Assembly: GCA_963827655.1 (NCBI GenBank)
Contig: CAWHCF010000009.1
Span: 1-64,000, forward strand
Direction of reading: 5' to 3'
DNA length: 64,000 bases
Origin: an uncultured Acidobacteriota bacterium
GTDB taxonomy: Bacteria; Acidobacteriota; UBA6911
Shown here piece after piece: positions 12,422 to 34,076 of the stretch (the stretch's first letter is position 1; each line of letters begins with the position of its first letter). The translations under genes and the position numbers were made by a program. The notes below the pieces were generated by a model, which had not been told where the DNA came from, ran no database searches, and was given only the letters and a program-made list of their open reading frames with translations.

Positions 12422-12438
12422 GACCTGGAGGGAAACGT

Positions 12439-15624: not shown

Positions 15625-17535
15625 TCACGCCATTTCCGACCCGAGGCAAGAACGGACCGCGCGAAGGCCGCCGATGGCAAAGATGAGCGGATAAAGCTTC
15701 TCGAAGTACCACAGCTTCGCGAAATAGAGACCGATCGGCGCGGCGGGAAACGAGCGCCCGTAATCGGTCGCCGCCGCCAGCCAGTTCACTGCGCGTAGCG
15801 CCGAAGGTCGTATGCGCTCCGCACTTGACGCTTCGCATATCGAGGCAAGGGCTTGCAGCGCGAGGGAAGTCTCCTCAATAGACGAGGGGGCGCCGCGCGC
15901 TCCGCCCCATCCTCCGTCGGAATTCTGGGCCGAAAGCAGCCACTGTTCCGCCCGGCTGGTCAACCCTTTCGTCTGGTATCCCTGGCGCTCCAGTTGCCGA
16001 AGGGCAATCATCACACGGGCGGTCCCGTAGGTCGGGTTCTCCTCGGCTTCCGAGTGCTGGTTGCCGAACCACAGCGGAACCCAGGCTCCATCGGCGCCCT
16101 GCGCCTTCTCGAGATAACGAATTCCGCGCGCGATGGCCGCCCCGACTTGCCGCGCCAGCGCATCCGGCAGGTCACCGCTCCAGAGCGACCACGCAAGCAA
16201 GGCGTGCGCCGTGAGATCCGGACTGCTGCGGTCGAATGGAAGATGGCCCCAGCCGCGGCAGAAGGTCGGCATCCCTCCATCCCGGTTTTGCAGCTCGAGC
16301 AGCCAGCGAACGCCGTTTCCGGCCGAGGCGCGCACCGACTCATCCGCAGTTCCCAGGTTTCGAAGGGCCACCAGAGCCCCGGCCGTGTCATCCGCATCAG
16401 GCACACCTCCGGGCAGATTGGTCCAGGCCCAGCCTCCCGGCGGAGCCCCGGTATAAGGATGTGGGCGGCAATACTGTTGGCCGAGCAGCCAATGCCGCAA
16501 TCGCCCGCGCTCATCGGGTTCAAGAGCCTGAGGTTCAAGTGCCGGGGCTGAGCTCAAGACATTGATGGCCAGCGTCGTCACCCAGGTCGAAAGATTCGTG
16601 TCGATCGGCCAACTGCCGTCGGGGCGCGCCGAGCGGCGAAGGAACTCGACGCCTTTCCGGACGACCGGATGATCGCGACGCCCGGATGCAACCAGGCTCA
16701 TGACGACGAAGCTGGTTAACGGTACCGCTTCCAGGAACCCGCCGCCTTCGGGTTGGATGCTCGTGAGGACTTTCAGCGTGCGCTCGCGCGCAAGCCGGCG
16801 CAGGACCCGAGCCAGTGGATTGCGCGTCGGCCGGTGATCGTGACGAGCCTGGCCGATGGCGATGAGCGCGGGGAGTGCATAGCTCACGACCGGGAGTCGC
16901 AGCCAGCGAAAAAAGCCCTGGGGGAATGCCGCCAGCTCAAACGGAAGTTGCGGGACTCGCCGCCAGCCGTCCCTCGGAGGTCCCAGGCGGCCTGCGAGGG
17001 CCAGTACCATCAAGATCGGGACGGAAAAGGTGCGGTCCTTCCCGTATCGGCGGGCGATTGCTCGCGCCAGCGTTTCCGGTGTAAGGCTCCCGGTCACGGC
17101 CGTCAACCAGCTCTCGGCAGACTGAAGGACAGTGGCACAACGATCGTCATTTCCCGCCGCCAACCCCAGGGCAGACCAGCAGAGGGCCGTGGTGCTGATG
17201 TTGCTGACGCTGCGGATCGTATCGCCCCACCCCCCGTCGAGGTTCTGTGTCCGCGCAAGCCATTCGAGTCCGTCGCGGACGTGGTGCTCATGGCATGCAG
17301 ATCCCGGGGTAACGGCGCGACTGTCATCCAGGCTCAAAGCGATCACGGCCGTCGCCGTGGAAAGAGGACTGCTCGCCAGCTCGCCTTCCCAGTATCCCTG
17401 AGGATTGCGGCTCTCGAGCAGTCGCTGGATGAGATTGTGCAGTGTCGCGTCGAGGGCGGACGATTGCAGGTCCGGAGTTCGAAGGGGAGCCGCGCTTCGC
17501 GGATTGGGTTCTCGATCGTCGTCGAACATCGGCAT
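15625..17535 (-). CDS. Squalene-hopene-cyclase-like class II terpene cyclase
   Basis: QW-type repeats (QNLDGGWG, QNRDGG, QNSDGGWG), GGWAW..GGVPDADDTAG containing the DxDD motif, 636 aa. Confidence 0.85.
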   Translation of the reverse strand: MPMFDDDREPNPRSAAPLRTPDLQSSALDATLHNLIQRLLESRNPQGYWEGELASSPLSTATAVIALSLDDSRAVTPGSACHEHHVRDGLEWLARTQNLDGGWGDTIRSVSNISTTALCWSALGLAAGNDDRCATVLQSAESWLTAVTGSLTPETLARAIARRYGKDRTFSVPILMVLALAGRLGPPRDGWRRVPQLPFELAAFPQGFFRWLRLPVVSYALPALIAIGQARHDHRPTRNPLARVLRRLARERTLKVLTSIQPEGGGFLEAVPLTSFVVMSLVASGRRDHPVVRKGVEFLRRSARPDGSWPIDTNLSTWVTTLAINVLSSAPALEPQALEPDERGRLRHWLLGQQYCRPHPYTGAPPGGWAWTNLPGGVPDADDTAGALVALRNLGTADESVRASAGNGVRWLLELQNRDGGMPTFCRGWGHLPFDRSSPDLTAHALLAWSLWSGDLPDALARQVGAAIARGIRYLEKAQGADGAWVPLWFGNQHSEAEENPTYGTARVMIALRQLERQGYQTKGLTSRAEQWLLSAQNSDGGWGGARGAPSSIEETSLALQALASICEASSAERIRPSALRAVNWLAAATDYGRSFPAAPIGLYFAKLWYFEKLYPLIFAIGGLRAVRSCLGSEMA

Positions 17536-17611
17536 GTGCGTTTCGATCTGCGTGACGATTTAGCAATGGCGCGCCTGGAGCGCGGGCCCGGCACGGCTCA
17601 TGAAGATCGGT

Positions 17612-18496
17612 TCACAGGGTCAGATGACCGAGCGAAAGCAGCGCGTAGTAGGTGTATTCGCAATCGAGAATGTCGTCCTGCCAATTGCCGTAGAACCCGC
17701 CCCGGTTGGTCCAGAGTGTGTCGATGAAGTCGAGGCACGACTCCTTGAACTCCTCAAACGAGACTTGCATGCCCGCCAGAGCATGCAGTGCCGTCGCGGT
17801 CGAAAGCAGGTCCGGTATGGGTGCGACAGGAGAGGCAAAGAAGCCGCCTCCCGGATGGCGGCGGGAGAGCAGCCACTGCTCGAGTCCCGGCCCCGGGGTT
17901 TGTCCCAGATGTCGCAGAAGCATGACTGCGGCGGCCGTGGAAGGGGTCAGCCCGAAAGCCTGCTCACTCTGATTGGCGAAACCGCCATCTGCAGCTTCCA
18001 TTCCCCGGAGGCACGCAATCATGCGGGCCGGATCGGGCATCTCCAGACCCAGGTCCTGATATGCGCCCAGTGCCAGGAAGCAGCCATAGACGCTGCCGTG
18101 CTCTGCGTCGGGGTCTGCGTGGTAACCTCCCTCACCGGTGCGGTGGCTTTCGAGTCGATCGCGGATCTGTTGTTTCGGCGCATCTTCCCGCAGGCCGCGC
18201 GGCAGATCCGCCCAGGCGCGCGCCAGACAGGTGAGATGAACAAAGTCGAGCGTGGATCCATCGCCGAACGTGCGGAGATACGCGGCCACTTCCCGGGACG
18301 GAAGGTCGTAGCCTAGTGCGATGAGACTTTCCAATCCGAAGACCGTGTAGTAGAGATCGCTTTCCCCGGCGCGGCCGCTGAAACCGCCATCCGCGCTCAG
18401 CTGGCCCAGAATGAACCCGGTCACGAGCTCGCGCGCGTCACCGAGCGCCTTCGGCGCGAGCCGCGCGACCTGCAGCATTTCTAGCCTCAAACTCAC
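17612..18496 (-). CDS. Prenyltransferase/squalene-oxidase-repeat protein (single barrel, no DxDD)
   Basis: Repeats ADGGFSG..DLYYT, DGGFAN, GGGFF..PDLLST, GGFYG..DCEYTYY. Confidence 0.8.
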   Translation of the reverse strand: MSLRLEMLQVARLAPKALGDARELVTGFILGQLSADGGFSGRAGESDLYYTVFGLESLIALGYDLPSREVAAYLRTFGDGSTLDFVHLTCLARAWADLPRGLREDAPKQQIRDRLESHRTGEGGYHADPDAEHGSVYGCFLALGAYQDLGLEMPDPARMIACLRGMEAADGGFANQSEQAFGLTPSTAAAVMLLRHLGQTPGPGLEQWLLSRRHPGGGFFASPVAPIPDLLSTATALHALAGMQVSFEEFKESCLDFIDTLWTNRGGFYGNWQDDILDCEYTYYALLSLGHLTL

Positions 18497-20162
18497 TGCA
18501 CCAGCCTTTGATCTCCATGCTGAAAATCTTGCCGACCACCCGGCGCAGCAAACCCTTCAGACTCGGATTCTTGAGCTGCACGAGCGAGCGTACCGCCTGT
18601 TCCTTGTAGGATTCCATGAGCCCGCGGGCCCGCTCTTCCACGCCCAGTTCCGTGATCAGCGCGCGGAGGCGCCCATCCTCGGCCGCCAGGGCGGGGTCGC
18701 GCCGCCAGGCCCGTTCGACCAGCATCCGGTTTTCCCCTTTGGTCCGTTCGTAGGCCAGGGCCAGCGGAAGAGTGGGACGAAAAGCCGTGAGATCGCCGGG
18801 AGCCTGATTGGTCTCCAGGTCGTCCAGATCGTCGCGGATCTGATACGCAATTCCGAGCGCCTCGCTGTACTGGGAGAGCACGCCAAGGATTTCGTCTCCA
18901 GCGCCCGCATAGGCCGCGCCTAGCTGCAGAGCGACTTCGAATGCCGGCGAGGTTTTCTGGCGGAAAAGCTCGAAGACTTGTCCCGGGTTCAATGGATGCG
19001 GAGCCTGCGCCCAACAAAGTTCTGCCCCCTGACCTTGACAGAGGGAGCGGTGTCCCGTCGCCGCGATGCGGACCATGCGGGCACGTATCTCGGCCGCCAC
19101 ATCGCTCGAGGCGAGCAGCCGGTATCCTTCCCCCAGCAGCAGGTCGCCCACGTTCAGCGCCACAGGAATACCATGTTCGGCGTGCAGAGTCTTCACGCCA
19201 TAGCGAAAGTCGTCGCCGTCCTCAATATCGTCGTGGATCAGCGAAGCCTTGTGGAAGCATTCAACCGCGATGGACAGCCGGCGAATGTCCTCGGGCAAGG
19301 GGGCGTCTGTGTCTTCCTGGAGCGCTTTGAAGGCGCAGATGGACAAGAACGGGCGCCACCGTTTGCCGGCTCGGGCGAGCCATTCGCGGGCAATCTCTTC
19401 CGTCTTCCCCTGCGCCGGAGCGCCGAATACCTGATCCAACGCCGGTGGCTCGAACCAGGATTGGACTTCGGCCCTCAGGGCGCCCAGGTCCAGGCGGCGA
19501 GTCCTGTCGTCGCTGGTCAAATGGATCACGTCCCAGACCCAGTCAAGATCCACCGTCGTATCCCGGCAATCGTCCTGCAGCAGAGGTATGGCAATTCCCG
19601 GGATCGCGGCCGCTTCCATATAGGGAAAAGCGCGCTCGAGCACAGAAAGGCAACTCACTCCGACGATGGCATCGATCTTTCCGGTCTGAATCAGGGCCAT
19701 GACGATGGCTGAGCCTTCAGCCACCAGGACCGCATAACCGAGTCGCTCGGCCTCCTCCTGGAGATCCTGGATTGAGCATAACCCGCACTGCTTGCAGAGC
19801 AGCCCGAACTCATCAAACGGCGCAGGGCATTTTTCTTCGACTCTCAGGCACTTGGGAAGGAGAAGAAGCCGGCGCTCGAATGGAACCGGAGCGAGGTGTT
19901 CCCGCCAGGCTTCGTTGCTTAGCACGACGGCCAGGTAATCACGGTACTTCGGATCGAGGTTGAGCCGATGGCAGAGTTCCTCCGAATGGTTGCGAAGTTC
20001 CTCCAGCGAGAGCGGAGGAACCGGGCGGACTTGTTCGACATACCCGATCACGGCCTCCTTGACCCGGTCGCGCTCACCGCGTGTCTGTGGGATGTTTGCC
20101 TGCGGTGTGCGGTAAGTCTGAACCGGAACCGGTCGTGGGATATTCAAAATTGGAATCTGCAT
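18438..20162 (-). CDS. Polyprenyl diphosphate synthase with N-terminal Cys-rich DUF116-like domain
   Basis: GKRWRP, FARM ASLIHDDIEDGD..R, GQGAEL, KT, SARM YQIRDDLDD; N-terminal LLLPKCLR..CPA..CKQCGLC..GVSC..DDC; GAGGAG RBS before ATG 20162. Confidence 0.9.
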   Translation of the reverse strand: MQIPILNIPRPVPVQTYRTPQANIPQTRGERDRVKEAVIGYVEQVRPVPPLSLEELRNHSEELCHRLNLDPKYRDYLAVVLSNEAWREHLAPVPFERRLLLLPKCLRVEEKCPAPFDEFGLLCKQCGLCSIQDLQEEAERLGYAVLVAEGSAIVMALIQTGKIDAIVGVSCLSVLERAFPYMEAAAIPGIAIPLLQDDCRDTTVDLDWVWDVIHLTSDDRTRRLDLGALRAEVQSWFEPPALDQVFGAPAQGKTEEIAREWLARAGKRWRPFLSICAFKALQEDTDAPLPEDIRRLSIAVECFHKASLIHDDIEDGDDFRYGVKTLHAEHGIPVALNVGDLLLGEGYRLLASSDVAAEIRARMVRIAATGHRSLCQGQGAELCWAQAPHPLNPGQVFELFRQKTSPAFEVALQLGAAYAGAGDEILGVLSQYSEALGIAYQIRDDLDDLETNQAPGDLTAFRPTLPLALAYERTKGENRMLVERAWRRDPALAAEDGRLRALITELGVEERARGLMESYKEQAVRSLVQLKNPSLKGLLRRVVGKIFSMEIKGWCSEFEARNAAGRAARAEGAR

Positions 20163-20193
20163 GCGCTCCTCGCCTGAGAGTGCGTCCGCTTCC

Positions 20194-21387
20194 TTAGGTA
20201 TACGCGCCGAAACCAAAGAACCAGTGCTTCTTGGCAAATCGATAGGCCCAGTGCTCCTCGGGTACTTCATTTCCGGGATTATGCTGACTGTTTCGCCCGG
20301 TCAGCCCGCCCAGCTCGACCAGAGCAGTTCCTCTCTGGGTGGTATCCCGGGCGCCATGCCGGAGGACGAGGTCCTGCACCAGGTCGGGGCGCTCCAGAAC
20401 GATACAGCCGCGCGTCGCGCCTGCCGCAGTCTCGCGGAATTCGCGCAGGAACGAAGATCCGTTCATGGTCTCGAAAAGGCCTCGGCCATCATGGATCGTC
20501 TCCTTGGCGAACTGGATGATCGGGCAGGGCTCGATATCCCCGTAGGGACTGATGTGGTGGCTGACTCCCGTCGCCATCGGGCAGAGCGCCTGGCCCTGAT
20601 CGTCCCAATAGGCATCGACGATGGCGATCGGCAGCCGGGCCCGCATGCGCACGATAAACCGGCGCACCTGGAGCACCTGTTCCGGAGTGAGCGCGAGCTC
20701 CGGAGACGCTTTGGGACCGATCACACGGTAGGTGTGGAACCAGACGTAGTGAACGCCGAGTCCGACCAGCCGGCGAAGCCAGGCCTCCGAGACCAGGTCG
20801 TCGATGTTGGTCCGGCAGACGCTGGTTGCGACCCCGGTGATCAGGCGGTTGCGCCGGCAATTCTCCAGGCCGGCCAGAGTCCGATCGAGCACCTGCGCGC
20901 GGCCGCGGCGCTCGTCGCTCACCGCGGCAGTCCCCTCGATGCTGACCAACGGACTGGCATTCCCGACGCGGCGCAATTCGCGCGCGACTTCGTCGCTGAT
21001 CAGCTGGCCGTTCGTGAAAATCTGAAAGTAGCAGTCCGGGTGCGCCTCCAGAATCCGGAAAAGCTCGGGATGCAGGAAGGGTTCGCCGCCGAGAATGCCG
21101 AAGTAGCTGTTGCCATGTCGCTTCGCATCGTTGAGCAGGCGGTTCATGTCGTCGAGCGAAATGAACTGCCGCGGCGCCTCCACGTCCACCCAGCACCCCT
21201 GGCAGCGGAGCTGGCAGCTATTGATGATCGAGATGAAGAGAAAAGGGGGAAAGTGCTCGCCGCGGCGCAAGCGCTTCTTGTAGAGCTGGACCGAACGCAT
21301 CCCTTTGTAGCCGAAGTTATAGGCAAACTTCCACACCAGCCGTCTGTCCGGTTCGGTCATCATGCGGCGCGCGAAGCTGAGCATCAT
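20194..21387 (-). CDS. Radical SAM protein with C-terminal SPASM/twitch-like Cys
   Basis: SCQLRCQGC (CxxxCxxC), GGEPF, FTNG, CPMA..HISPYGDIEPCP..GC. Confidence 0.92.
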   Translation of the reverse strand: MMLSFARRMMTEPDRRLVWKFAYNFGYKGMRSVQLYKKRLRRGEHFPPFLFISIINSCQLRCQGCWVDVEAPRQFISLDDMNRLLNDAKRHGNSYFGILGGEPFLHPELFRILEAHPDCYFQIFTNGQLISDEVARELRRVGNASPLVSIEGTAAVSDERRGRAQVLDRTLAGLENCRRNRLITGVATSVCRTNIDDLVSEAWLRRLVGLGVHYVWFHTYRVIGPKASPELALTPEQVLQVRRFIVRMRARLPIAIVDAYWDDQGQALCPMATGVSHHISPYGDIEPCPIIQFAKETIHDGRGLFETMNGSSFLREFRETAAGATRGCIVLERPDLVQDLVLRHGARDTTQRGTALVELGGLTGRNSQHNPGNEVPEEHWAYRFAKKHWFFGFGAYT

Positions 21388-21418
21388 AGGACGGACCCAC
21401 CCGTTATACTTTGATTCA

Positions 21419-22288
21419 TCATTCCGAAATTCCCTGTCCCGCGTCTGCCAGCGCGGCCTCTGATCTGACCTTCGCGGCTTCCGCCTTCGCTCGGATCTGG
21501 TCGAGAGAAGGGAGCGACGCCAGCACCTCCGGCGGAATATCGAGCTTTTGCTGGAGCTGAATCAGGCATCGCTGCCGCTCCTTCAAAGCGCGCTCCTCAT
21601 CCCGCTCCTTGGAGAACCTGGACTTGGCGCGTGTGCTCCGGTCACGCAGCGCGGCATAGATGTCCCCGCCGAGCAGGGCGGAAATATCGACTTTCATCGC
21701 TTCGCGGCGAACATCTTCGGTATTCACTTCATCGCCGTTGATGGGGCTGTGCCGGTATTTCGGGAACAGGATGGCCACCTCGGGACAGACGCGCGAACAG
21801 GCCGGACAGTCGGTCTTGCAGTTGCTCTGGTTCTGCACGCGGATCTTCCCTTCCGGCGAGACCGCGTACACCTCGAACAAACAGAAGCTCAGGCACTGCA
21901 TGCAATTCGTGCAGCGCGAATAATCGATGACCGGGAACCAAGGTTTCCAGGCACGGGGCTGAGGCGGCTGCGATTCGGTGCGCAACTGCTCCGCGATGGC
22001 GAGGACGTTGTCCGGTCCTAAACCCTCGATGTCATGAAACTGAACCCGAACCGCTCCCCGGTCATCGATTGCGAGCGCAGGATTCTGCTGCAGGAAGCGG
22101 CCCAGCACCAGAAGGGATCCGCCTGCTGCCGGCAGCGCCAGCGATCCGTTCCCGCGAGCGCACGAAACCGGGAAGCCCTTCTCCAGCAGACCCCGGAGAA
22201 TCAGGCCGCGGTCGGCCTGCGGGAGAGGCCGGCTGCCGGTACCCTCATAGAGAATTACCTGCCACGGGGTGCTGGTGGGCCGGGTCAC
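21419..22288 (-). CDS. 2x[4Fe-4S] ferredoxin-domain protein
   Basis: CTNCMQCLSFC and CKTDCPACSRVCP; GTG start overlaps the upstream TGA. Confidence 0.85.
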   Translation of the reverse strand: MTRPTSTPWQVILYEGTGSRPLPQADRGLILRGLLEKGFPVSCARGNGSLALPAAGGSLLVLGRFLQQNPALAIDDRGAVRVQFHDIEGLGPDNVLAIAEQLRTESQPPQPRAWKPWFPVIDYSRCTNCMQCLSFCLFEVYAVSPEGKIRVQNQSNCKTDCPACSRVCPEVAILFPKYRHSPINGDEVNTEDVRREAMKVDISALLGGDIYAALRDRSTRAKSRFSKERDEERALKERQRCLIQLQQKLDIPPEVLASLPSLDQIRAKAEAAKVRSEAALADAGQGISE

Positions 22289-22638
22289 GATTGTTCCTCC
22301 TCTTCCGCGACCAGCCTCCCGACAACACTTTCTGCGCTCTCGGTCCTCATATTGAGGATCTGGACCCCCTCCTGCGCCAGCGGCGCCTCGGCCGCGGCGA
22401 AGAGCCATCGGACCGCGCGCGGGTAGCACGCGACGATTTTCAGCGGGCCGCTCCCTAGCTCCTTGAGCGCCGGATCATGGCGCGCGGACAACTCACATAG
22501 ATCAGGTACCGCATCGAAGGCCTGGCCGGAAGCCGCCAGACGGTCCAGTACTTCGCGCTTCACGTCCGCCGGTACCACTTCGGCATAGGCGCAATGGCAA
22601 TAGAGAATCCGCGCTCCGGGTTGCTTCACGTCACCCAT
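22285..22638 (-). CDS. Small Cys-containing protein resembling the HdrA N-terminal Fe-S domain
   Basis: ILYCHC..DLC..IVACYPR..LF..ILNMR compared with HdrA VxVCHCG..xCS..VAACxPR..F..ANIR. Confidence 0.6.
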   Translation of the reverse strand: MGDVKQPGARILYCHCAYAEVVPADVKREVLDRLAASGQAFDAVPDLCELSARHDPALKELGSGPLKIVACYPRAVRWLFAAAEAPLAQEGVQILNMRTESAESVVGRLVAEEEEQS

Positions 22639-22667
22639 AGAACTCCGCAAAACTCAGATTCCCGTGG

Positions 22668-22838
22668 TAGTGTGGCTCAGACATTCTTCCGAGCACCCTG
22701 TGGCGACGGGCCATTGGCCCGTCGCAAGTAACGTAATCGGCATGCCTTAACCTTAAAAAGTTCAGTAGTGCCCCTCGGGAGCCGGACGGGCTTGATAGCC
22801 CGTCCGCACATATACCGGGAGGTTTTGCGACAATCTCT
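22668..22838. mobile_element. MITE-like repeat A copy 1 (related to the IS1182 end), two perfect hairpins
   Basis: Near-identical to 25948-26108. Hairpins GCGACGGGCC-ATT-GGCCCGTCGC and CGGACGGGCT-TGAT-AGCCCGTCCG. End GGTTTTGCGACAATCTC. Confidence 0.75.
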
Positions 22839-22937
22839 GATGACCCGCGCATTCTTCTCACGGCTGCGTCTACTCTCTCGGTCCTTCGTGCCTCAACTGC
22901 TCCACAATACGCTACTCGTAATTGCGAACAGCAGTAT

Positions 22938-23405
22938 TCAGCCATCCGCTCTTTCCTGCTTTTCCAGCATCTTGTCAATGGTGGCGTCCAGTATCGCGAC
23001 GTAACCGTGTACGTCCACACTGCCGGGATCGGGCTCTCCGCGGGCCTGGTAGAGCCATCCAAGGTAGGGATTCGAATCAATCAGCGTGATGTCCTGTGCG
23101 AGTTCGGCGCTGCTCCCGGCGAATTCGCCCCTGATGACCGAATAGACGTCCGTGATTGCTTTGAACCCTTCGATCCAACCTATCGTCTGGCCGACCGTCA
23201 CCGGCTCGCCTTCCTTTACTTTGAATTCCAGCTCCACCAGATCACCGAGCATCCGGGTCGCGAACTTGGTCAGGCCCACCCGCACCAATCCGCCGGCATT
23301 CCGGGCAATCCAGTAGTGCGATGCCGTGTACAAAAGATCCACAGGCAAACGGGTCGAGAAGCGCGACCGTTTGTAGTAGACAGTTTCAGGTGGAGCTGGC
23401 TGCAT
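22938..23405 (-). CDS. GcvH-like lipoyl carrier protein
   Basis: YTASHYWI..VRVGLTKFA..LGDLV, IEGFKAITDVYS (lipoyl Lys retained), SNPY.GWLY. Confidence 0.85.
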   Translation of the reverse strand: MQPAPPETVYYKRSRFSTRLPVDLLYTASHYWIARNAGGLVRVGLTKFATRMLGDLVELEFKVKEGEPVTVGQTIGWIEGFKAITDVYSVIRGEFAGSSAELAQDITLIDSNPYLGWLYQARGEPDPGSVDVHGYVAILDATIDKMLEKQERADG

Positions 23406-23436
23406 GGCTGCATCCCACGGTTCCCCGAGGCCGGCA

Positions 23437-24570: not shown

Positions 24571-24712
24571 CACGTCCTGATTCTCCGGGTTTCTGTCCCA
24601 CACAGGATACCCGGGTGATTGCGCAATGTTATCCTGTGTCGCGGTCTTTTCAAATAGGCTGAGATGCGCTCACTTCCGGAAACGCGAGCCGGCGAGCACT
24701 GGAGCTCTCCAA

Positions 24713-25444: not shown

Positions 25445-25516
25445 ATCGGGACCTCCGGTGCGCTCACGGGTTTCTGGGTAGACCTGTGAAGCCGGGTTTC
25501 ATGTTAAACTTGCGTC

Positions 25517-25876
25517 ATGATGCGCCGACGAGCTACTCGAAACGTCGCCGACCCCGGGAGCGATCTGTTGCTCTTTGAAGGATTCGACTGTGTGGGCGCG
25601 CTCAAGGCGCTGGGCGAGGACACGCGAGTGCGCATCATGGGTCTCTTGCTGGAAGCGCCCCTTGGCGTCTGTGAGATCGCGCGCCGTCTCGGCACGACCC
25701 ACTACAACATATCCAAACATCTGCGCATCCTGCGCGAGGCGGGGCTGCTGGACGTCGAAAGGCACGGCCGGGAGCGTCTCTACATGGTGCCTGAGAGAAT
25801 CCGGCGCGGCCGAAGAGCGCACGCTAAAGTGCTGGACCTGGGTTGCTGCAGCTTTCAATTCGATCAACGGTCCTGA
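25517..25876 (+). CDS. ArsR/SmtB-family regulator with C-terminal vicinal Cys pair
   Basis: LKALGEDTRVRIMGLL..VCEIA..ISKHLRILREAGLL..R.GRER.Y; tail LDLGCC. Confidence 0.9.
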   Translation: MMRRRATRNVADPGSDLLLFEGFDCVGALKALGEDTRVRIMGLLLEAPLGVCEIARRLGTTHYNISKHLRILREAGLLDVERHGRERLYMVPERIRRGRRAHAKVLDLGCCSFQFDQRS

Positions 25877-25947
25877 GAAGCTGGAAAAAAATTGGGGACT
25901 GGGCTCAGTCGGCAGAGACGCATAACACAAGCCCAAGGTTCTTGTAC

Positions 25948-26108
25948 TAGCGTGGCTCACACATTCTTCCGAGCACCCTGTGGCGACGGGCCAGTGGCCC
26001 GTCGCAAATAACGTAATCGGATGCCTTAACCTTCAGTTGTGCCCCTCGGGAGCCGGACGGGCTTGATAGCCCGTCCGCACATGTATCGGGACGTTTTGAG
26101 ACAGTCTC
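25948..26108. mobile_element. MITE-like repeat A copy 2
   Basis: Same sequence and orientation as 22668-22838; end GTTTTGAGACAGTCTC. Confidence 0.75.
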
Positions 26109-26222
26109 CGAATTCATCTGTACCATCAACCACGCCTGACGGGCGTGGCTACTTTCTGCCGGCTCTTCGAGCCTCTCCAATTTCTTCACACCTCCTGAGG
26201 CCCGGACTTCGCGCTCACCTTC

Positions 26223-27302
26223 TCACCGGACGCCGAAGTCGGGAGGCTCGTCCTCATCGGCACACGCGGCGTCGCGGACCTTGGGTGCGAGAAAGACAAA
26301 CGCCGCGCCGGCCTCTCCCTTCGACAGCATCTGCCAATCATGCACGTTGAGCGGGGTCAGCTCACCGCGGCGAAACACGTTCCCGTAGTCGTCCGCTACC
26401 TGTGCCAGCGGCCCTCGATAGACGGCGTGATGAGTTTTCGCTTTCGAGCGGTGACCCGGTTTCGTGGCCCGGATACGAAATTCGCGCATGGGCACTCCCG
26501 CAACGACGAAGTACGCCGTCTGTGAAAGCGTCTCGAGCTCGACTTCGACAAAGCCGGCCTGAGTGAGCTCCACCACCATTTCGGTCGCGGTAGGGACATA
26601 CTCCACGGCCATTGCCGGACCTGGGAGCGACAGCTTTTCATCGTTACCGGGGTAATCGCCCGCCAGTCCGTGGATCTGGATGCTGCCCCCGGGCCGCAAT
26701 GCCCGCAGCGCTTCCGGGATCAGTCGATCGCGATGGACTGCGTTAGGGCTGGCGTTGAGACTACCCTCCAGCGCCACTTCGTGCAGTGTGTTCGCTTCGT
26801 GAGGAATCTTGTCGGGAAAGGCTTCGCCCAGACGGTGCGACCAGATCAACCGCGGTTTCGAAACGACGACGGGCGGGTTGAGCGCCTCGATTGGAATGGT
26901 CGCATCGCCCCGCTCGGGGATGTCTTCGTGAAAGACATAGATTTCCCACAGCATGCGATCCGGATCGGAAACCCAGAACTTCGTCTGACGGGCATAGCAA
27001 CACTCGACTCCTTCCTCCCGCCTGGTGCCGATGCCGGCAGCTTCGAGGCGCCTTTGCACCTCCACCAGCTCGTCCGCGTTTCGCACACGCAAACCGACGT
27101 GATTCACGTTCCCGCCCGGCTTGCCGGGGATCAACGATAGTATGAGCGGAGGTTCGGCAAGTTCGAACTTGGCATAATCCCCTCGAACCTTTGCCGGCTC
27201 CACGCCAAGCAGCACTCGGTAGAACGCAACCGATCGTGTGAGGTCGGTCACAGTCAGCGAGGCATGGAACTTCAGAAGCGAGTCGTGAACCGGTCCTGCC
27301 AT
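26223..27302 (-). CDS. ArsI/CadI-family VOC metalloenzyme fused to a degenerate ArsM-like C-terminal region
   Basis: KFHASL, YAKF, NHVGL, ECCYARQTKFWVSDPD..WEIY; then ALRALRPGG..AGF.. and AVYRGPLAQVADDYGNVFRRG. Confidence 0.8.
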   Translation of the reverse strand: MAGPVHDSLLKFHASLTVTDLTRSVAFYRVLLGVEPAKVRGDYAKFELAEPPLILSLIPGKPGGNVNHVGLRVRNADELVEVQRRLEAAGIGTRREEGVECCYARQTKFWVSDPDRMLWEIYVFHEDIPERGDATIPIEALNPPVVVSKPRLIWSHRLGEAFPDKIPHEANTLHEVALEGSLNASPNAVHRDRLIPEALRALRPGGSIQIHGLAGDYPGNDEKLSLPGPAMAVEYVPTATEMVVELTQAGFVEVELETLSQTAYFVVAGVPMREFRIRATKPGHRSKAKTHHAVYRGPLAQVADDYGNVFRRGELTPLNVHDWQMLSKGEAGAAFVFLAPKVRDAACADEDEPPDFGVR

Positions 27303-27325
27303 AGTATCCTCCAGATTGATAGGTG

Positions 27326-27404
27326 TCTTGGCGTCTTCGTGTCTTTGTGGTTAGCCCCCCGAAACAAATACCACCAGGATACAAAGACACGAAGAAACAC
27401 CAAG
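27326..27404. repeat. REP-like inverted pair overlapping the MFS 3' end
   Basis: TCTTGGCGTCTTCGTGTCTTTGTGGTTAG ... ACCACCAGGATACAAAGACACGAAGAAACACCAAG. Confidence 0.65.
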
Positions 27405-28613
27405 AATCTTTGTGTGCCCGGGGGAGGATGACACGGACGGCAAGGAGACTCGCAGCGCCGCAACGCCCAGCGCAGCTATCGCCGGCGCCAGCATCCAAAG
27501 CGCAGGCATGTAGGAGCCTGTCAGCTCCGCGCACTTGGCGAACAGGAGCGGACCCAGTGCTGAAGCCAGCACCGTCAGCATCTGGGCGGCGCCCTGGATT
27601 CTGCCGAGGTGTGCGGCGCCGTAGGCGCGCCGCCAGATAGCAAAGAAGATCACGGTAATCATGCCGCCGGAAAGCCCCATCAGCGCCGCAAAGACCCATA
27701 AACCGGACAGTGCCGTGAGCAGCGGAAACACGGCCAGAGCCAAAGCGTATGCGGCCAGGGCAAGCGCCAGGATACGCTGCATCGACCAACGCAGCGTGAG
27801 AAACCCGCACCCGAGTTGACCGAACAGCGCGATGAGCGCCGAGCCGGCGAGAAACTGGTGGTACGTCTCGCGGTTGAAGCCACGCTCGGCAAGCACCGCT
27901 TCATTGAACAACCCCAGACCCGAGGAGACGAGACCATACAGCGACGTGGCGCCACCGAAGACCCAGAACGCAGGAGTGGTCAGCGCGTCCGACAACGACA
28001 GCCCCTCGGCTGTTCCGTTCGGCTGCAAACCCGGATCGCTCTTGCCGGGTTCACGAGCGAAGAATAGCACGACCGGCGCCACGAACAAGGCCAGCGCCCA
28101 TGCGATCGCGGCCCACGCGTCGCGCCAGCCCCGGTCACGAACCAGGCTGCCGACGATCGTGAACGCGCCGGCGAAGAACAGGCTCAGCAACACGGAGTAC
28201 ACGCCCATGGCCAGGCCCACACCGCGGTCGAAGCCTTTGCCTACCACCGTGATGCTCGCAACTGAAAGCGCGCTCTGGCCCAGCGCGCGGGTGGCGAGAA
28301 CGAGAAGGAACAAGAACAGGATGCCGCCTGAGAGCCCGCTCATCTGCCAGACGGTCAGGCTCAGGAGCGCCGTGATCAATACCGTGGTCAGGCGCAAACC
28401 GAAGCGATCGAAGATCCGGCCGACCGGAAGGCAGACGACAGCTCCGAGCAGCGTGGCCCAGAGATTGAGGTGCGCGTAAGATATCCGATCCAGATGCAGG
28501 TCCCGCAGCAGTGGCTCTGTGATGAGGCCCAGGCCCTGAGTTCTGCCGGGCAGGGTCGCGACCATGATCAGCGCTCCGACAACGACATTGATCCAGGCGC
28601 TGATCCGGCGCAT
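27351..28613 (-). CDS. MFS transporter
   Basis: About 12 hydrophobic segments, GRIFDRFGLR motif A, YGAAHLGRIQG. Confidence 0.9.
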   Translation of the reverse strand: MRRISAWINVVVGALIMVATLPGRTQGLGLITEPLLRDLHLDRISYAHLNLWATLLGAVVCLPVGRIFDRFGLRLTTVLITALLSLTVWQMSGLSGGILFLFLLVLATRALGQSALSVASITVVGKGFDRGVGLAMGVYSVLLSLFFAGAFTIVGSLVRDRGWRDAWAAIAWALALFVAPVVLFFAREPGKSDPGLQPNGTAEGLSLSDALTTPAFWVFGGATSLYGLVSSGLGLFNEAVLAERGFNRETYHQFLAGSALIALFGQLGCGFLTLRWSMQRILALALAAYALALAVFPLLTALSGLWVFAALMGLSGGMITVIFFAIWRRAYGAAHLGRIQGAAQMLTVLASALGPLLFAKCAELTGSYMPALWMLAPAIAALGVAALRVSLPSVSSSPGHTKILGVSSCLCILVVFVSGG

Positions 28614-28616
28614 AGC

Positions 28617-29402
28617 TTAGCGGAAGAAGGTCATCGTCTTGCCGTACTCGGCATAACGATCCTTGAGCCATTCGGCGAACTCTGCATAGTGCCGTTCGCG
28701 CTGATCGCCGCCGTCGCTGAACGCGTTGTAGCTCAGATAAAGCAGGCGCCGCGACCGGCTCGATCGGTTGGGCAGCGAACGATGCGGGGTATACCCGCTG
28801 AAGACGGCGACATCCCCCGGCTCCAGGCAAAGGAGCACACCGGTTGAGGGATCGACGGCATCGTCCGGCAACTGGTGATACATGCCGTCCCGGGGCGACA
28901 TGCAACCGCGGCGATGATAACCAGGAAACACTTCCGTCGCACCGTTCTCATGATCGCAGGGATCGATGGCGACGATGGCGGTGACGAAGCTGGTGGGAAA
29001 AGACTCCCAGGCAATGTAGTCCTGATGAAGGCGGTAACCGTCCGCGCCCGGAAGTTTGAAAATCAACTTGTCCTTGAACAGGCAGGCTCGCTCGCCATAA
29101 AGCTGCCCGACGAGCTCGAGCAGCACTCGGCTGCGGGCGATGCGTTCGCAAGCGGGGCTGAGATCGATTACGGGGTCGAAGCAGTCGAAGCGGCACTCGC
29201 CGGTCTGGAAGTGATTCTGCCAGCGGCAACGAATGTTGTCGCTATCGATGAGATCGATGCGCTGGTAGAGACGGACTGCTTCCGCATCGAGCTCGGAAAT
29301 CTCTCCGGCGGACAGGACACCACGGACGATGACGAAGCCATCCTGGACATATTGCCGGATCGCCGCATCCTCCAGCCGCCGCTCAGTCGCCGCCTTGAGC
29401 AT
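28617..29402 (-). CDS. Phytanoyl-CoA dioxygenase (PhyH)-family Fe(II)/2OG enzyme
   Basis: QDGFVIVRG, KDKLIFKLPG, LHQDY (HxD), NGA..PG.H, LEPGDV..F..PHRS.PN.S..RR. Confidence 0.9.
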   Translation of the reverse strand: MLKAATERRLEDAAIRQYVQDGFVIVRGVLSAGEISELDAEAVRLYQRIDLIDSDNIRCRWQNHFQTGECRFDCFDPVIDLSPACERIARSRVLLELVGQLYGERACLFKDKLIFKLPGADGYRLHQDYIAWESFPTSFVTAIVAIDPCDHENGATEVFPGYHRRGCMSPRDGMYHQLPDDAVDPSTGVLLCLEPGDVAVFSGYTPHRSLPNRSSRSRRLLYLSYNAFSDGGDQRERHYAEFAEWLKDRYAEYGKTMTFFR

Positions 29403-29427
29403 GGCAAACTTTCCTTTCGCTCCTGGC

Positions 29428-31620
29428 TCAGAAGGTCAGCCCCATGGTAATCCCGAACTGGCGCGGCGCCCCCATTTCCCCGACAAATCCTGACGGCGCC
29501 AGAGCGCCGTAGGCAAACGCTATCGGGATGTACCGCGTGTCGAACGCATTCTTGACCCAGCCTTCGACGAACCCGTACCGCACGCGCACTCCGGCGCGGA
29601 AGTTCGCGAGGGAGTATGCCTCCTGAGCTCGACTGTTGGCGTCATTGTAATCGAAACCGCCGTTGAACCATACCTCGCCGCGCCCATAAAGGGTCACCGA
29701 TGGGCTGAGGATACGGGAGTACTGCGCGCCCAGTGTCGCCGTAAAGTCCGGAGTGCTGGGAAGTTTGTTTCCGGACACATCGAGGCCGCTGGAAGAGGTT
29801 CCGTCAGCGAAGCGCGCGTGCGTGTAACCGAAAACGCCGAAGAGATCGATGGCCGGGTGAGGCCGCGCAATGAGTTCCAGCTCGACTCCCTTGCTCCGGG
29901 CGCCGCCGATGTTTGCAATGTAAAACTGGGCCGGTACGGCCGGGTTGGGCAGGTTGAGTTGCAGCCCGCTCCAGTCGATGTAGAACACGGCCGCGTTGGC
30001 GGATACCTTGCCATCGGCCAGCAGGGTCTTGACTCCGCTTTCCACATGCCAGGCGTGCTCTTCGTCATAGGCTTCGTTGCCGGGCGGAGACGCCGCGTTG
30101 AAACCGCCGGCCTTGAATCCCCGGCCCGCCGAAGCATACACCATCCGGCCCGGCTGGAAGCGGTAGGAGGCTGCAAACTGCGGCGACACGTTGGAAAAGT
30201 CCTTTTCGGCCGACACGCTGCGGCCCGGACTGAAGGCCGGATCAAAGAATGTGTTCAGCACCGCTTCCTTGTCCTCATAATCGAAACGGGCGCCCAGGGT
30301 AATGTCGAAGTTGTCGCTGAACGTCGTCGTGACCTGGCCGTACACACCCACGCCCACGTCATCCAGGTCGGCCTCCGGCGAATGCTGGTTTATCGGGAAA
30401 TTCAGCTGAGGCGATAAGACGAACGGCGCAAAGCTGTTGATGGCGTCCTGTTCGTAGCTCTGGGTGAAGAAGAATATGCCGGTCTGCCATTTCATCGTAA
30501 CGCCGTCCGCCAGGCGCGCCGGCGCAGCGGTAGCCGAGGCAAAGCGCACTTCCTGAGTGAACTGGAAATCGGTCTCGCTGTTGTCACGAGTTATCAGAGG
30601 CGCGGGCGAGTAGTCCAGGTCGGTCACGTCCTGCGTCTTCCAGTGGACGAATCCTGTGGTGGTGGCGAAAGCGAAGCGCTGCCCTTCGCGGCGCGTCTGG
30701 ATGACCGTGGACAGCACGTCCCGGTTCGTGAAGCCTTCAAAGTCGCGGGCTGAGTGAAAGGGATTCTGCCGCAGGGCCTCCAGATCGTTGAGCGCGTAGT
30801 CGCCGTCGCGGTCGCGCTCTCCCGTGAGGATGACCCGCGCTTCCCATTCGCTGTTGGGCACCCACCAGAGTTGAGCCTTCCCGTAGGAGGCCGCGCGAGA
30901 GTCCAGGTCGTTACCCGTGACGTCGTTGAGCGTGAAACCCTCGCGCTCACCGTGCCCGATCGTCAGTCCCACACCCAGCTTGTCGGTTACCGGTCCCGAC
31001 ACACTTCCCCTCGCGTCCCAGTTCGAGTAGTTGCCCACCGGAACGATCACACTGCCGGCCCATTTCGACAGAGAGGGTCTCTGGGTGGTGATGTTGACCA
31101 GCCCACCGAGCGTGTTGCGGCCGAATAACGCGCTTTGCGGTCCGCGAACGAACTCGACCTGGCCGATGTCCAGGAACTCGATGTTGGACGAGTTCGTGTT
31201 GAGCTGGGGCACACCGTCGATATAGGTCGTGATCCCGGGATTCATCGGGCTCGAACTGATGCCGCGAAACCGGGCATTGCTCAGCTTGCGCGCCGTGAAC
31301 TCCGAAAAAAATGTGTTGGGCGCATATATGGAGGCGTCGCTTACCTTCAGGACGCCGGCGTTTTTCAGCACCGTCTCGGACACTCCGGTCACGCTGACCG
31401 GCAACCGCTGGGCGTCGTCCGGCTCCTTGTAAACGTGGACCGTTATCGGCGGCAGCCGGATCGGATCCGGTTCCTGCGCCGGCGCCGATTGTGCCAGCGC
31501 AGCAGGCGGGGCGCCCGTCCCGAGGACGCCGGAGATGAGGATGAGCAGGAGCAACGGGGTCGCATTTCCACGCAGGATTCGCATCGGCGCACGTTTTAAC
31601 ATGTGCGCCATTATGCACAT
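29428..31620 (-). CDS. TonB-dependent receptor (start uncertain, 31587-31620)
   Basis: Signal peptide, plug YIDGVP..VEFVRGPQSALFGRNTLGGLVNI, GFKAGGFN, C-terminal PRQFGITMGLTF. Confidence 0.92.
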   Translation of the reverse strand: MCIMAHMLKRAPMRILRGNATPLLLLILISGVLGTGAPPAALAQSAPAQEPDPIRLPPITVHVYKEPDDAQRLPVSVTGVSETVLKNAGVLKVSDASIYAPNTFFSEFTARKLSNARFRGISSSPMNPGITTYIDGVPQLNTNSSNIEFLDIGQVEFVRGPQSALFGRNTLGGLVNITTQRPSLSKWAGSVIVPVGNYSNWDARGSVSGPVTDKLGVGLTIGHGEREGFTLNDVTGNDLDSRAASYGKAQLWWVPNSEWEARVILTGERDRDGDYALNDLEALRQNPFHSARDFEGFTNRDVLSTVIQTRREGQRFAFATTTGFVHWKTQDVTDLDYSPAPLITRDNSETDFQFTQEVRFASATAAPARLADGVTMKWQTGIFFFTQSYEQDAINSFAPFVLSPQLNFPINQHSPEADLDDVGVGVYGQVTTTFSDNFDITLGARFDYEDKEAVLNTFFDPAFSPGRSVSAEKDFSNVSPQFAASYRFQPGRMVYASAGRGFKAGGFNAASPPGNEAYDEEHAWHVESGVKTLLADGKVSANAAVFYIDWSGLQLNLPNPAVPAQFYIANIGGARSKGVELELIARPHPAIDLFGVFGYTHARFADGTSSSGLDVSGNKLPSTPDFTATLGAQYSRILSPSVTLYGRGEVWFNGGFDYNDANSRAQEAYSLANFRAGVRVRYGFVEGWVKNAFDTRYIPIAFAYGALAPSGFVGEMGAPRQFGITMGLTF

Positions 31621-31667
31621 TTCGCCCCGGCACGCAAATTATTTGAGGATGTGGGCCATGCGACTAA

Positions 31668-31899
31668 GGGCTCGCGCAGAAATAACTTCACATTCTGGCG
31701 CGAGAGTGGGTGTCAATCATGAACCGGTTTCTGTTCGCTAAGCACGGTGAGGATCGCGCCCCTTCGGGCTGCGGCCCGCAGGCCCGCTGGCTTTGTTGCT
31801 CGCTCCTCACGTACCGCACCGGGTACGCATCGTCGCTCGCGCCTCGCCAGCGGGCCTGGGGGCCTGCAGCAGAATGCGAACCTATTTCTGCGCGAACCC
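31668..31899. mobile_element. MITE family B copy 1 (IS5-like TIRs, TAA target duplication)
   Basis: TAA|GGGCTCGCGCAGAAATAA ... CTATTTCTGCGCGAACCC|TAA; near-identical to 33791-34023. Confidence 0.88.
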
Positions 31900-33005
31900 T
31901 AAGCGGAGGCCATGCGATAAGTGGGCACCGGCCTTGCCGGCCGGAAATGCTCGGTATGCACGGTATCGGCGCGCGCGCCGATGCGTGAAGTCACGGCGGC
32001 AAGCGCATCAAGCACCGCCCGGTGCAAAGACTCGGGATCCGCCTCGGCACGCAGGTTCACAATAAGCTCGCCGGAGCTTAGTTCGTCCCGAAGCGTGTGG
32101 GATAGTTCGGCTGCGCGATCGTTACCGACCTGGTTGAGCACGGCGATGTCGCCGACATCCTCGTCCGGGGTGAGGACAACTTTGAAATGCGCCAGTTCGG
32201 GGCGTCCGGCCGCAAGATGACTGGTAACTTCATGCGCCAGGTCGGAGAGGAACTTGTTGCCATCGAAGCCCTCGGGTGCCGTCACATGGAAGGTACCGTT
32301 GAACCAGCCCAGCAGCGCTTCGCCTTCGGCATACAAATCGTAGTCCACGTCCGGCGCGACTCGCGTGTCCGACTCGGTGCTGCCGACGCGCTCGAACCAC
32401 CCTTCGAGTCCATCACGGGTTCTGGCGCTGACCAGAAAAACTTCAGCCGCGCCGTAGGTCGCTCGCAGCGCGTCTTCCAGCGACGATAGTTTCTCCTTTC
32501 CCAGGAGATCCGACTTGTTGATAACGATAATATCCGCTTCCTCCAACTGCTTGTGGTAGACGTAGAGCACCTTATCCGAGAATCCTTTGCCGGACTCGAG
32601 GCCGAGAATCCGGCGCGCGCGGATGGGATCCACAAGAACGCTTAACGGCGCGATGCGATAGTCATCTCCATACAGACGGCGCAGAGGATATTGCACGGAG
32701 GCGCGCAGATCGGTGCAGCTTCCCACGGGCTCGGCAAGAAACACGTCAGGCTTCGCCGCTTCGGTCAATCGTTCCGCGGCAGAGGTCAATGAATTGAACC
32801 GGCAGCAAAAACATCCGCCCGTGATCTCCTGGACCGGATACCCGTGAGAGTCCACCATCGCAGTGTCCACGAGACCGGTACTCTGATCATTGGTGATCAA
32901 CCCGACGCGCCGTCCTCTCGAGGTCAGATGTTCTGCCAGTCTGAGCAGGGCCGTCGTCTTCCCGGCGCCCAGGAAGCCTCCCACCATTATGTAATCAGCT
33001 TTCAT
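31899..33005 (-). CDS. COG0523/CobW-like G3E GTPase metallochaperone
   Basis: GGFLGAGKTT, ITNDQ, GGCFCC, AEPVGSC, QLEEAD..INKSD. Confidence 0.9.
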   Translation of the reverse strand: MKADYIMVGGFLGAGKTTALLRLAEHLTSRGRRVGLITNDQSTGLVDTAMVDSHGYPVQEITGGCFCCRFNSLTSAAERLTEAAKPDVFLAEPVGSCTDLRASVQYPLRRLYGDDYRIAPLSVLVDPIRARRILGLESGKGFSDKVLYVYHKQLEEADIIVINKSDLLGKEKLSSLEDALRATYGAAEVFLVSARTRDGLEGWFERVGSTESDTRVAPDVDYDLYAEGEALLGWFNGTFHVTAPEGFDGNKFLSDLAHEVTSHLAAGRPELAHFKVVLTPDEDVGDIAVLNQVGNDRAAELSHTLRDELSSGELIVNLRAEADPESLHRAVLDALAAVTSRIGARADTVHTEHFRPARPVPTYRMASA

Positions 33006-33730: not shown

Positions 33731-33790
33731 CAATCGTTCAAGGTCGGCGAGCTGCTCGGAGTAGTGTTGCTGGCTTGACATGCGATCTTA

Positions 33791-34023: not shown

Positions 34024-34076
34024 TTAGGAGTGTTTGGGCCACGTGAGACACGATCTCACTAATCGGAGAGTCTGAC

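Follow-up and report, generated by a model that had tools for sequence, protein, structure and literature searches.

An SHC-like cyclase operon of Acidobacteriota, Planctomycetota and Verrucomicrobiota as a candidate pathway to a non-squalene cyclic polyprenoid

We analysed positions 1–64,000 (forward strand) of contig CAWHCF010000009.1, assembly GCA_963827655.1, from an uncultured Acidobacteriota bacterium of the GTDB lineage UBA6911; this whole stretch of 64,000 nucleotides is referred to below as the window. An earlier reading of its letters, here called the original prediction, had seen at 15625–33005 a terpene cyclase core coupled to lipoyl-carrier and sulfur-insertion machinery and to an arsenic/metal module. 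We find that the locus consists of two units. Unit 1 (15625–24603, plus a displaced COG0523 gene at 31899–33086) is built around a cyclase that resembles squalene–hopene cyclase (SHC). It is probably a pathway to a cyclic polyprenoid that does not derive from squalene, with a radical S-adenosylmethionine (SAM) step and a dedicated electron chain, in which a trio of desulfurase, GcvH-like and COG0523 genes would serve Fe-S supply or sulfur chemistry. Unit 2 (ArsR, an ArsI fusion, an MFS transporter, a PhyH-family oxygenase and a TonB-dependent receptor, TBDR) appears to be a separate module of organoarsenical or metal-stress type, which is joined to Unit 1 physically in some Acidobacteriota and perhaps regulatorily too. 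No characterisation of the operon was found in the literature searched, and within that literature the original prediction that no characterised pathway has this combination of genes stands; the cyclase clade itself is in print as 'SHC-like', and the passages that deal with it in PMC7306690 and PMC12414744 both list its function as unknown.

A conserved six-gene core around the cyclase

Pfam and NCBIfam scans of the locus proteins recovered all the genes that had been named in the original prediction, on the same strands: a partly overlapping minus-strand run, a lipoate ligase and an ArsR gene divergent from it, and a second run. The features of Unit 1, with the repeat that interrupts it, are as follows (window positions).

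15625–17535, minus: SHC-like class II terpenoid cyclase, 636 aa; SQHop_cyclase N and C; DxDD = D380-A-D-D383
17612–18496, minus: prenyltransferase-beta-like alpha/alpha toroid protein, 294 aa; Pfam Prenyltrans 5e-12
18438–20270, minus: fusion of a Cys-rich DUF116 domain to a trans-polyprenyl diphosphate synthase; Pfam DUF116 9e-35, polyprenyl_synt 4e-40
20194–21387, minus: radical SAM enzyme with SPASM/twitch-type relatives ('variant 1'); Pfam Radical_SAM
21419–22288, minus: 2x[4Fe-4S] ferredoxin-domain protein; Pfam Fer4 families
22285–22650, minus: orf121, a small four-Cys protein of 121 aa, partner of the ferredoxin; without Pfam family
22647–22852, no strand: dispersed repeat 'MITE-A', in the slot that COG0523 has in other genomes
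22938–23405, minus: GcvH-like lipoyl-carrier protein of a cluster-specific subfamily; Pfam GCV_H 9e-19
23437–24603, minus: IscS/NifS/DndA-like cysteine desulfurase; Aminotran_5 1.5e-67
31899–33086, minus: COG0523 GTPase with CxCC motif; cobW (PF02492) 6.8e-26, 91.4 bits against 20.7

The usual order of these genes in other genomes is desulfurase, GcvH, COG0523, orf121, ferredoxin, radical SAM, DUF116 fusion, toroid and cyclase. The operon is conserved in Verrucomicrobiota, Planctomycetota and Acidobacteriota, and single metagenome-assembled genomes (MAGs) labelled Myxococcota and Actinomycetota carry it as well. Since dozens of genomes from several phyla repeat this gene order, the arrangement is far beyond chance, and the coupling of the terpene core to the GcvH-like, COG0523 and desulfurase genes that had been proposed for this locus is borne out by their co-occurrence elsewhere. 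Among 38 loci that were seeded with GcvH and extend at least 9 kb downstream, orf121 and Fer4 proteins are each found in 35, COG0523 in 34, the radical SAM enzyme and the DUF116 fusion each in 33, the toroid protein in 29 and the cyclase in 19. Cyclase-seeded loci with both flanks (n = 32) hold the toroid protein in 17 cases, the DUF116 fusion in 16, the ferredoxin in 13, orf121 in 12 and GcvH in 7. The phyletic distribution was followed in an even set of 301 genomes of the window's phylum, which includes the unpublished G049 and G024, with a threshold of E ≤ 1e-60 for presence of the cyclase. The cyclase and the DUF116 fusion occupy an identical set of 11 genomes (∼3.6%), and 8 of these 11 also have the GcvH-like protein, which was found in no genome among the other 290.

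Six genes make up the conserved core: orf121, ferredoxin, radical SAM enzyme, DUF116 fusion, toroid protein and cyclase. The trio of GcvH, COG0523 and desulfurase is a frequent accessory to this core, because it is missing both from loci with a second type of radical SAM enzyme and from genome G270. This second type ('variant 2', ∼520 aa) is unrelated to the SPASM-type enzyme and takes the same operon position; its best family match, TIGR04013, falls below cut-off. It is found in Phycisphaerae, Sedimentisphaerales and some Planctomycetaceae and Acidobacteria, at loci L008, L023, L027, L029, L035, L037 and L080 (e.g. L027:5853–7388), from which GcvH, COG0523 and desulfurase are missing. Among loci with at least 9 kb upstream, GcvH is present at nine of nine with the SPASM-type enzyme and at none of seven with variant 2.

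In the window the minus-strand cluster is tightly packed, with the synthase and toroid genes overlapping by 59 nt as they do in L005. The ferredoxin gene has a GTG start at 22288 that overlaps the stop of orf121 (shared GTGA) and lies downstream of a GGAGGA site. The start of its longest open reading frame (ORF) is too far upstream, and the same probably holds for the DUF116 fusion, where most orthologue matches begin at residue 36–39 and the start is probably M37, at 20162. An ORF of 149 aa at 22631–23080, between GcvH and orf121, was rejected as a gene; its 3' part is a dispersed repeat of ∼200 bp.

Genes for PQQ_2/BamB-like beta-propeller proteins adjoin the cluster in 28 loci (e.g. L008:2632–5064 and L134:16747–19206); they stand directly upstream of orf121 in L008, L023, L035, L040 and L080, and after the toroid gene in L134. 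This family is very numerous in genomes of the Planctomycetota–Verrucomicrobiota–Chlamydiota (PVC) group, so the neighbourhood may be due to chance.

The proposed pathway and its alternatives

The cyclase has the beta-gamma didomain (SQHop_cyclase_C, 1e-34; SQHop_cyclase_N, 1.3e-19), and SHC is its best solved relative (2e-21). D380-A-D-D383 was matched by alignment to the DVDD/DxDD motif of the A. acidocaldarius SHC (1gsz), and the surrounding VPDADDT is retained in at least 95% of 103 cyclase orthologues. The score against the hopene-cyclase model TIGR01507 is nonetheless only 94.9 bits where the cut-off is 431.1, and that against TIGR01787 is 124.7 against 322.7. The gene is single-copy, with no second cyclase found in the genome. 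More than 515 relatives are present in species-representative genomes, mostly of Verrucomicrobiota, Planctomycetota and Acidobacteriota.

From its taxa, length, motif and context we infer that the window cyclase belongs to the published 'SHC-like' clade. The clade, as described in the relevant passages of PMC7306690 and PMC12414744, shares with it the same taxa (PVC bacteria and Acidobacteriota), a length of 550–700 aa that encloses the 636 aa found here, the retained catalytic residues and a context that does not point to squalene. Santana-Molina et al. (2020, PMC7306690) suggested from genomic context a non-squalene precursor for the clade, and 'The Evolutionary History and Modern Diversity of Triterpenoid Cyclases' (2025, PMC12414744), in the part concerned with it, places it as the sister group of the epoxy-polyprenyl cyclases, which act on head-to-tail chains. 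These passages deal with the cyclase only; they name neither its partners (Fe-S, radical SAM, GcvH, COG0523, desulfurase) nor the ArsI link. The sister clade includes Lon15 of longestin and AtoE of atolypene, whose pathways, as presented there (PMC12414744), resemble the present one in having a regular head-to-tail polyprenyl chain, a dedicated synthase and class II cyclisation. They differ from it in that the epoxidation there is O2-dependent, whereas the window locus has no epoxidase, an SHC-type DxDD motif, and Fe-S and radical SAM partners.

Squalene is disfavoured as the substrate on three grounds: PF00494, the family of SQS/HpnCDE that supplies squalene, has no match in the window genome (G000, 90.3% complete) or at the locus, the cyclase is far below the SHC cut-offs, and the literature places its clade apart. 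The DUF116 fusion could supply the alternative. Its synthase half has the motifs DDIED and DDLDD, its DUF116 part has six invariant Cys, and solved structures yielded no significant match to DUF116 by sequence or by profile. This fusion was remarked on in 2015, with no function assigned in the section concerned (PMC5898192, section 3.6). A profile of 31 orthologues of the toroid protein matches GGTase-II beta (4e-10), FTase beta (∼1e-6) and class II cyclases (∼1e-6). The Zn site of prenyltransferase beta subunits presumably consists of Asp, Cys and His at set positions; the toroid protein has no conserved Cys and ends before the region of the His ligand, and its candidacy as a Zn prenyltransferase was therefore rejected.

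The remaining core proteins are rich in conserved Cys. In the radical SAM enzyme C58xxxC62xxC65 and five further Cys are invariant in 32 sequences, and every NCBIfam match is far below its cut-off, that to HpnH (TIGR03470) being 31.7 against 225.05. The ferredoxin protein conserves CxxCxxCxxxC and CxxxCxxCxxxCP together with its N- and C-terminal extensions, and against solved structures it matches generic ferredoxin domains only. The protein orf121, with C18, C20, C52 and C75 invariant, has 1813 homologues and belongs to no Pfam family; two of 120 homologues among the matches listed carry JGI 'HdrA-like' names, and neither its sequence nor its profile had a significant match among solved structures. 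Many of its 57 longer homologues carry Fer4 families, so fused orf121–ferredoxin forms exist.

From the observed gene content, motifs, synteny and phyletic co-occurrence we infer the following chemistry, at every step. The synthase half of the DUF116 fusion would make an all-trans, head-to-tail prenyl diphosphate, and the prenyltransferase-beta-like toroid may hold the chain or pass it on. The DxDD cyclase would then begin a protonation-driven cyclisation to give a polycyclic isoprenoid that is not derived from squalene, and the radical SAM enzyme would modify either substrate or product. Electrons may come from orf121 and the ferredoxin and from the Cys-rich DUF116 domain. The desulfurase, the lipoylatable GcvH-like protein and COG0523 would form an accessory module providing sulfur, a dithiol redox or carrier arm, and metal, which may either build and repair Fe-S centres or feed sulfur into the chemistry.

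The accessory proteins are distinct from their housekeeping relatives. The GcvH-like protein does not reach the glycine-cleavage cut-offs (TIGR00527, 62.2 against 115.85; NF002270, 75.8 against 117), and a canonical GcvH, 28% identical to it, is encoded on another contig. The lipoyl-lysine context EGFKA is kept, with E79, G80, K82 and A83 invariant and F81 nearly so in 32 sequences. The desulfurase scores above the cut-off of the DndA model (TIGR03235, 495.5 against 480) and below those of the IscS and NifS models; a family scan restricted to the locus proteins found no dndBCDE partners, and the conserved partners of the gene are those of the terpene cluster. COG0523, the only match to its family in the genome, has a cobW nucleotide-binding domain and a GGCFCC (CxCC) motif that is conserved in orthologues.

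At 24626–25444, on the plus strand and divergent from the desulfurase, lies an LplA-like lipoate–protein ligase that consists of the catalytic domain only (LplA-B_cat 1e-29). It is the sole LplA-family match in the genome, which also has ordinary LipA and LipB. Its inclusion in the system holds in part: the ligase adjoins the cluster in six other loci (L047, L083, L088, L154, L155 and L156), but in those six only, five of them acidobacterial and one labelled Planctomycetota. A parallel can be drawn with the sHdr-LbpA system of sulfur oxidisers, which as we understand it has a dedicated lipoate assembly (sLpl(AB), LipS1/LipS2). The two would be alike in having a GcvH-like protein that is not part of glycine cleavage, together with a dedicated ligase, with radical SAM and HdrA-like Fe-S proteins and with a setting of sulfur metabolism. 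However, Pfam finds neither HdrB/HdrC (CCG) nor FAD-HdrA families among the 17 locus proteins, LipA and LipB are ordinary here, and the partners are terpenoid genes.

Several observations weigh against the pathway as proposed. In genome G270 (93% complete) the SPASM-type radical SAM enzyme belongs to a bare six-gene core, and no GcvH-like protein was found there, which indicates that the accessory module is not obligatory. Two unrelated types of radical SAM enzyme at the same position leave the radical step undefined. The synthase scores best on short-chain models, while the residues before its first Asp-rich motif, by the rule that we take to apply, resemble those of long-chain enzymes. The cyclase stands without any other cluster gene within the flanks in 13 of the 32 cyclase-seeded loci, although at least two of these 13 MAGs, judged by record names, hold the remaining cluster genes on another contig. 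Lastly, five other cluster genomes were tested, and each of them has PF00494 genes outside the cluster and lacks a canonical SHC.

An unlikely alternative, which shares most of these steps, is that the product is a sulfur-bearing cyclic terpenoid. Sulfur from the desulfurase, carried as a persulfide on the GcvH-like lipoyl arm or on an Fe-S centre, would enter the isoprenoid through a cluster-sacrificing radical SAM step or through capture of the final carbocation of the cyclase, and COG0523 and the desulfurase would rebuild the spent cluster. This would be consistent with the company that the trio keeps with the SPASM-type enzyme and its five extra invariant Cys, and with the ligase dedicated to the cluster in Acidobacteriota. 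It is also in keeping with two kinds of gene found beside the cyclase. In L096, an Opitutae MAG, a NifS-like gene (8720–10045) lies directly upstream of the cyclase (6827–8713), both on the minus strand and 7 nt apart, and the pair is divergent from the run that leads from GcvH and COG0523 to the toroid. NifS-like genes adjoin GcvH or the cluster in Verrucomicrobiota loci too, and in other loci of that phylum desulfurase-like and cyclase matches occur together on the strand opposite to GcvH. In 15 Verrucomicrobiota loci (e.g. L022:9489–9914) the gene directly upstream of the cyclase encodes a DCC1-like (DUF393) thiol-disulfide oxidoreductase; the protein is small, has a C-terminal hydrophobic segment, and is present even where the cyclase is otherwise alone. 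On the other hand, the six-gene core does without the trio in the variant-2 loci and in G270, no match to a known sulfur-inserting enzyme family reaches its cut-off, and a plain role in Fe-S maturation accounts for the same genes. The variant-2 enzyme was considered as a MiaB-type methylthiotransferase and dropped, as its N-terminal part has one conserved Cys outside CxxxCxxC, and thus no three-Cys auxiliary motif of the MiaB type. Sulfur in the product is possible; the claim of the original prediction that the product is sulfur-, metal- or arsenic-modified was not supported by the analysis.

An extended form of this idea, which we hold to be unlikely, is that the operon makes a sulfur-containing polycyclic polyprenoid of an undescribed lipid or cofactor class. 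Sulfur would come via the desulfurase and the GcvH-like lipoyl arm and be joined by the radical SAM enzyme or by carbocation capture, and COG0523 would re-metallate the Fe-S centre. In some Acidobacteriota, a thiol lipid or dithiol carrier would in addition be linked to the way in which the adjoining ArsI-fusion, PhyH and MFS proteins deal with trivalent organoarsenicals.

It is quite improbable that the operon is a divergent hopanoid-like pathway, in which the SHC-like protein cyclises squalene made elsewhere, the radical SAM enzyme replaces HpnH and the synthase supplies farnesyl diphosphate. Hopanoid clusters hold a prenyl synthase, SHC and HpnH, and the present locus resembles them in uniting a prenyl synthase, a DxDD beta-gamma cyclase and a radical SAM enzyme and in its likely kind of product, a membrane polycyclic lipid. 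One passage of a soil-metagenome paper labels a Verrucomicrobial SHC-containing biosynthetic gene cluster simply 'hopanoid' (PMC8692599). The presence of PF00494 without a canonical SHC in five of five other cluster genomes keeps squalene alive as a substrate there, and SHC remains the best solved relative of the cyclase. In the phylum sample canonical SHC is found in none of the 11 cluster genomes and in 56 of the other 290, a mutual exclusion that is not significant, since chance would put it in ∼2 of the 11 and the genomes are related to one another. The locus departs from hopanoid clusters, however, in the distance of its cyclase and radical SAM enzyme from the SHC and HpnH cut-offs, in the lack of any HpnCDE/SQS found in locus or genome, and in its extra Fe-S proteins, DUF116 fusion, toroid, GcvH and COG0523. 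The PF00494 genes of the five other genomes are unlinked to the operon, the cyclase occurs together with the DUF116 fusion in 11 of 11 genomes, and the literature puts the clade outside SHC (PMC12414744, in the part that treats it). The original prediction that this is not ordinary hopene synthesis is thus upheld, and a non-squalene cyclic polyprenoid remains the preferred product.

The adjoining ArsI module and local rearrangement

The features of Unit 2 and the repeats around it are as follows.

25517–25876, plus: ArsR/SmtB-family regulator; HTH_5 7e-13; NF033788 71 against cut-off 55; C-terminal Cys-Cys pair
25948–26111, no strand: second copy of MITE-A in the same orientation; 88% identity over 173 nt to 22668–22840
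26223–27302, minus: ArsI/CadI-type VOC domain with a C-terminal domain of ∼220 aa; NF041414 130.6 against cut-off 116
27351–28613, minus: MFS transporter; MFS_1 1.3e-20
28617–29402, minus: PhyH-family Fe(II)/2-oxoglutarate oxygenase; PhyH 5.9e-28
29428–31620, minus: TonB-dependent receptor; Plug and TonB_dep_Rec_b-barrel
31664–31898, no strand: dispersed repeat 'MITE-B', with a second direct copy at 33779–34022

The N-terminal 127 residues of the ArsI fusion align to T. curvata ArsI (PDB 5c4p). Its CC pair is kept, as are the ligands His and Glu, and the NF041414 score, the vicinal Cys pair and the metal triad place the domain in the ArsI/CadI family, the first metal ligand being His instead of Gln. 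It differs from T. curvata ArsI also in the fused domain of ∼220 aa and in the company of PhyH and MFS genes. The best NCBIfam match of the PhyH protein is methylphosphonate hydroxylase, with 102 bits against a cut-off of 500.

In 80 ArsI-fusion loci, PhyH is found in 70, MFS in 63, ArsR in 33, COG0523 in 11 and TBDR in 7, five of the last seven being Acidobacteriota/Blastocatellia records. The frequencies of PhyH and MFS indicate that PhyH, MFS and the ArsI fusion, with or without ArsR, form a conserved module of their own. This three-gene module (L150–L229) is widespread, mainly in Planctomycetota, often with ArsR and sometimes with its own COG0523 paralogue. It was found beside terpene or GcvH genes in the window and in L154, L155 and L156 (Acidobacteriota), and in L157 it lies within the cluster, co-oriented with GcvH on one side and COG0523 on the other, so that the link between terpene and ArsI genes is real but lineage-specific. 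The original prediction that the arsenic/metal module is part of the system therefore survives, as a physical link, for a few Acidobacteriota, while elsewhere the module is independent.

That the terpene core, the lipoyl/sulfur machinery and the ArsI, PhyH, MFS and TBDR proteins form one pathway to an arsenic- or metal-modified cyclic terpenoid is highly improbable: ArsI, PhyH and MFS are carried by none of the 148 cyclase- or GcvH-seeded loci, cluster loci of Verrucomicrobiota and Planctomycetota lack the ArsI module, the 10 further cluster genomes in the phylum sample are without the ArsI fusion, and in most of its 80 loci the module stands alone. Besides the adjacencies above, this idea draws on a weaker cyclase-like match (46% identity) next to ArsI in L162, on the rarity of both partners in the phylum sample (∼3.6% of the genomes for the cluster; 1/301, or ∼0.3%, for the ArsI fusion, in the window genome only) and on a related COG0523 paralogue that occurs with ArsI and ArsR in six Planctomycetaceae loci. 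Dithiols such as dihydrolipoate, moreover, bind As(III). The adjacency may equally reflect shared ancestry (the window and L154 are sisters), a shared island or a shared regulator.

The cluster is rearranged here by small mobile repeats. In 34 of the 38 GcvH-seeded loci that reach at least 9 kb downstream, the place between GcvH and orf121 is taken by COG0523; in the window MITE-A is found there, and COG0523 sits 8.5 kb from its usual slot. In a quick COG0523 tree the window copy groups with that of L154 (97*) inside the terpene-cluster clade, and the paralogues of the Planctomycetaceae ArsI modules form a separate clade. Judged by its sequence, the window COG0523 is the orthologue of the cluster-embedded gene, moved out of the operon. 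MITE-A (∼200 bp; 140 blastn high-scoring segment pairs genome-wide at 75–94% identity) contains two GC-rich hairpins, at 22703–22725 and 22783–22806; its second copy lies between ArsR and the ArsI fusion, and a further partial copy at 54158–54215. MITE-B (∼235 bp) gives 263 such pairs genome-wide, many at 94–98% identity, and COG0523 together with a DUF202 gene is enclosed by its two direct copies.

The GC content is 0.61–0.65 in 16000–32000 and 0.55–0.61 over most of the remaining window, a weak hint of an acquired island. Promoter and terminator scans gave nothing above shuffled controls. Rfam found two tRNAs only in the window, at 974–1046 (minus) and 3937–4009 (plus), and nothing in the spacer between COG0523 and TBDR, MITE-B included. 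Pieces of most locus genes are covered, at 95% identity or more, by metatranscriptome contigs from four soil or rhizosphere runs. As a sign of expression this is weak at best, because libraries of this kind may contain DNA and the high depths are those of dispersed repeats; MITE-B draws high depth in the soil contigs. One run has a contig that joins 31900 to 26135, with one side short and adjoining repeats.

Downstream of the cyclase by 107 nt is an NADPH-dependent FMN reductase gene (PF03358, 14966–15517, minus), which was dropped as a cluster member, having no homologue near any other locus. Converging on the cluster from 11521–14300 (plus) are two genes of a molybdate/sulfate-type importer, one a solute-binding/permease fusion and the other an ABC ATPase that has a TOBE domain. 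Upstream of COG0523, at 33038–36520, are DUF202, Bestrophin-like and PepSY_TM/cytochrome b561-like genes.

Implications for the SHC-like clade

SHC-like cyclases form a large clade, with members in PVC bacteria, Acidobacteriota and other groups. The Conclusions of PMC12414744, a phylogenetic study, present the unknown substrate of SHC-like cyclases as the missing piece for understanding the evolution of triterpenoid cyclases and their substrates. A concrete set of genes for that question is supplied by the conserved partners of the cyclase: the DUF116/prenyl synthase fusion, the toroid protein, the radical SAM enzyme with its electron chain, and the sulfur/lipoyl/metal module. The recurrent desulfurase or thiol-oxidoreductase gene beside the cyclase is a further lead, and the acidobacterial link to the ArsI-type module is a lineage-specific lead on regulation or function. 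Several of the lineages that carry the operon are, we assume, anaerobic; if so, the operon would be an oxygen-independent route to polycyclic isoprenoids. Its product might be a novel membrane lipid and might serve as a biomarker for phyla that are abundant in soil and water.

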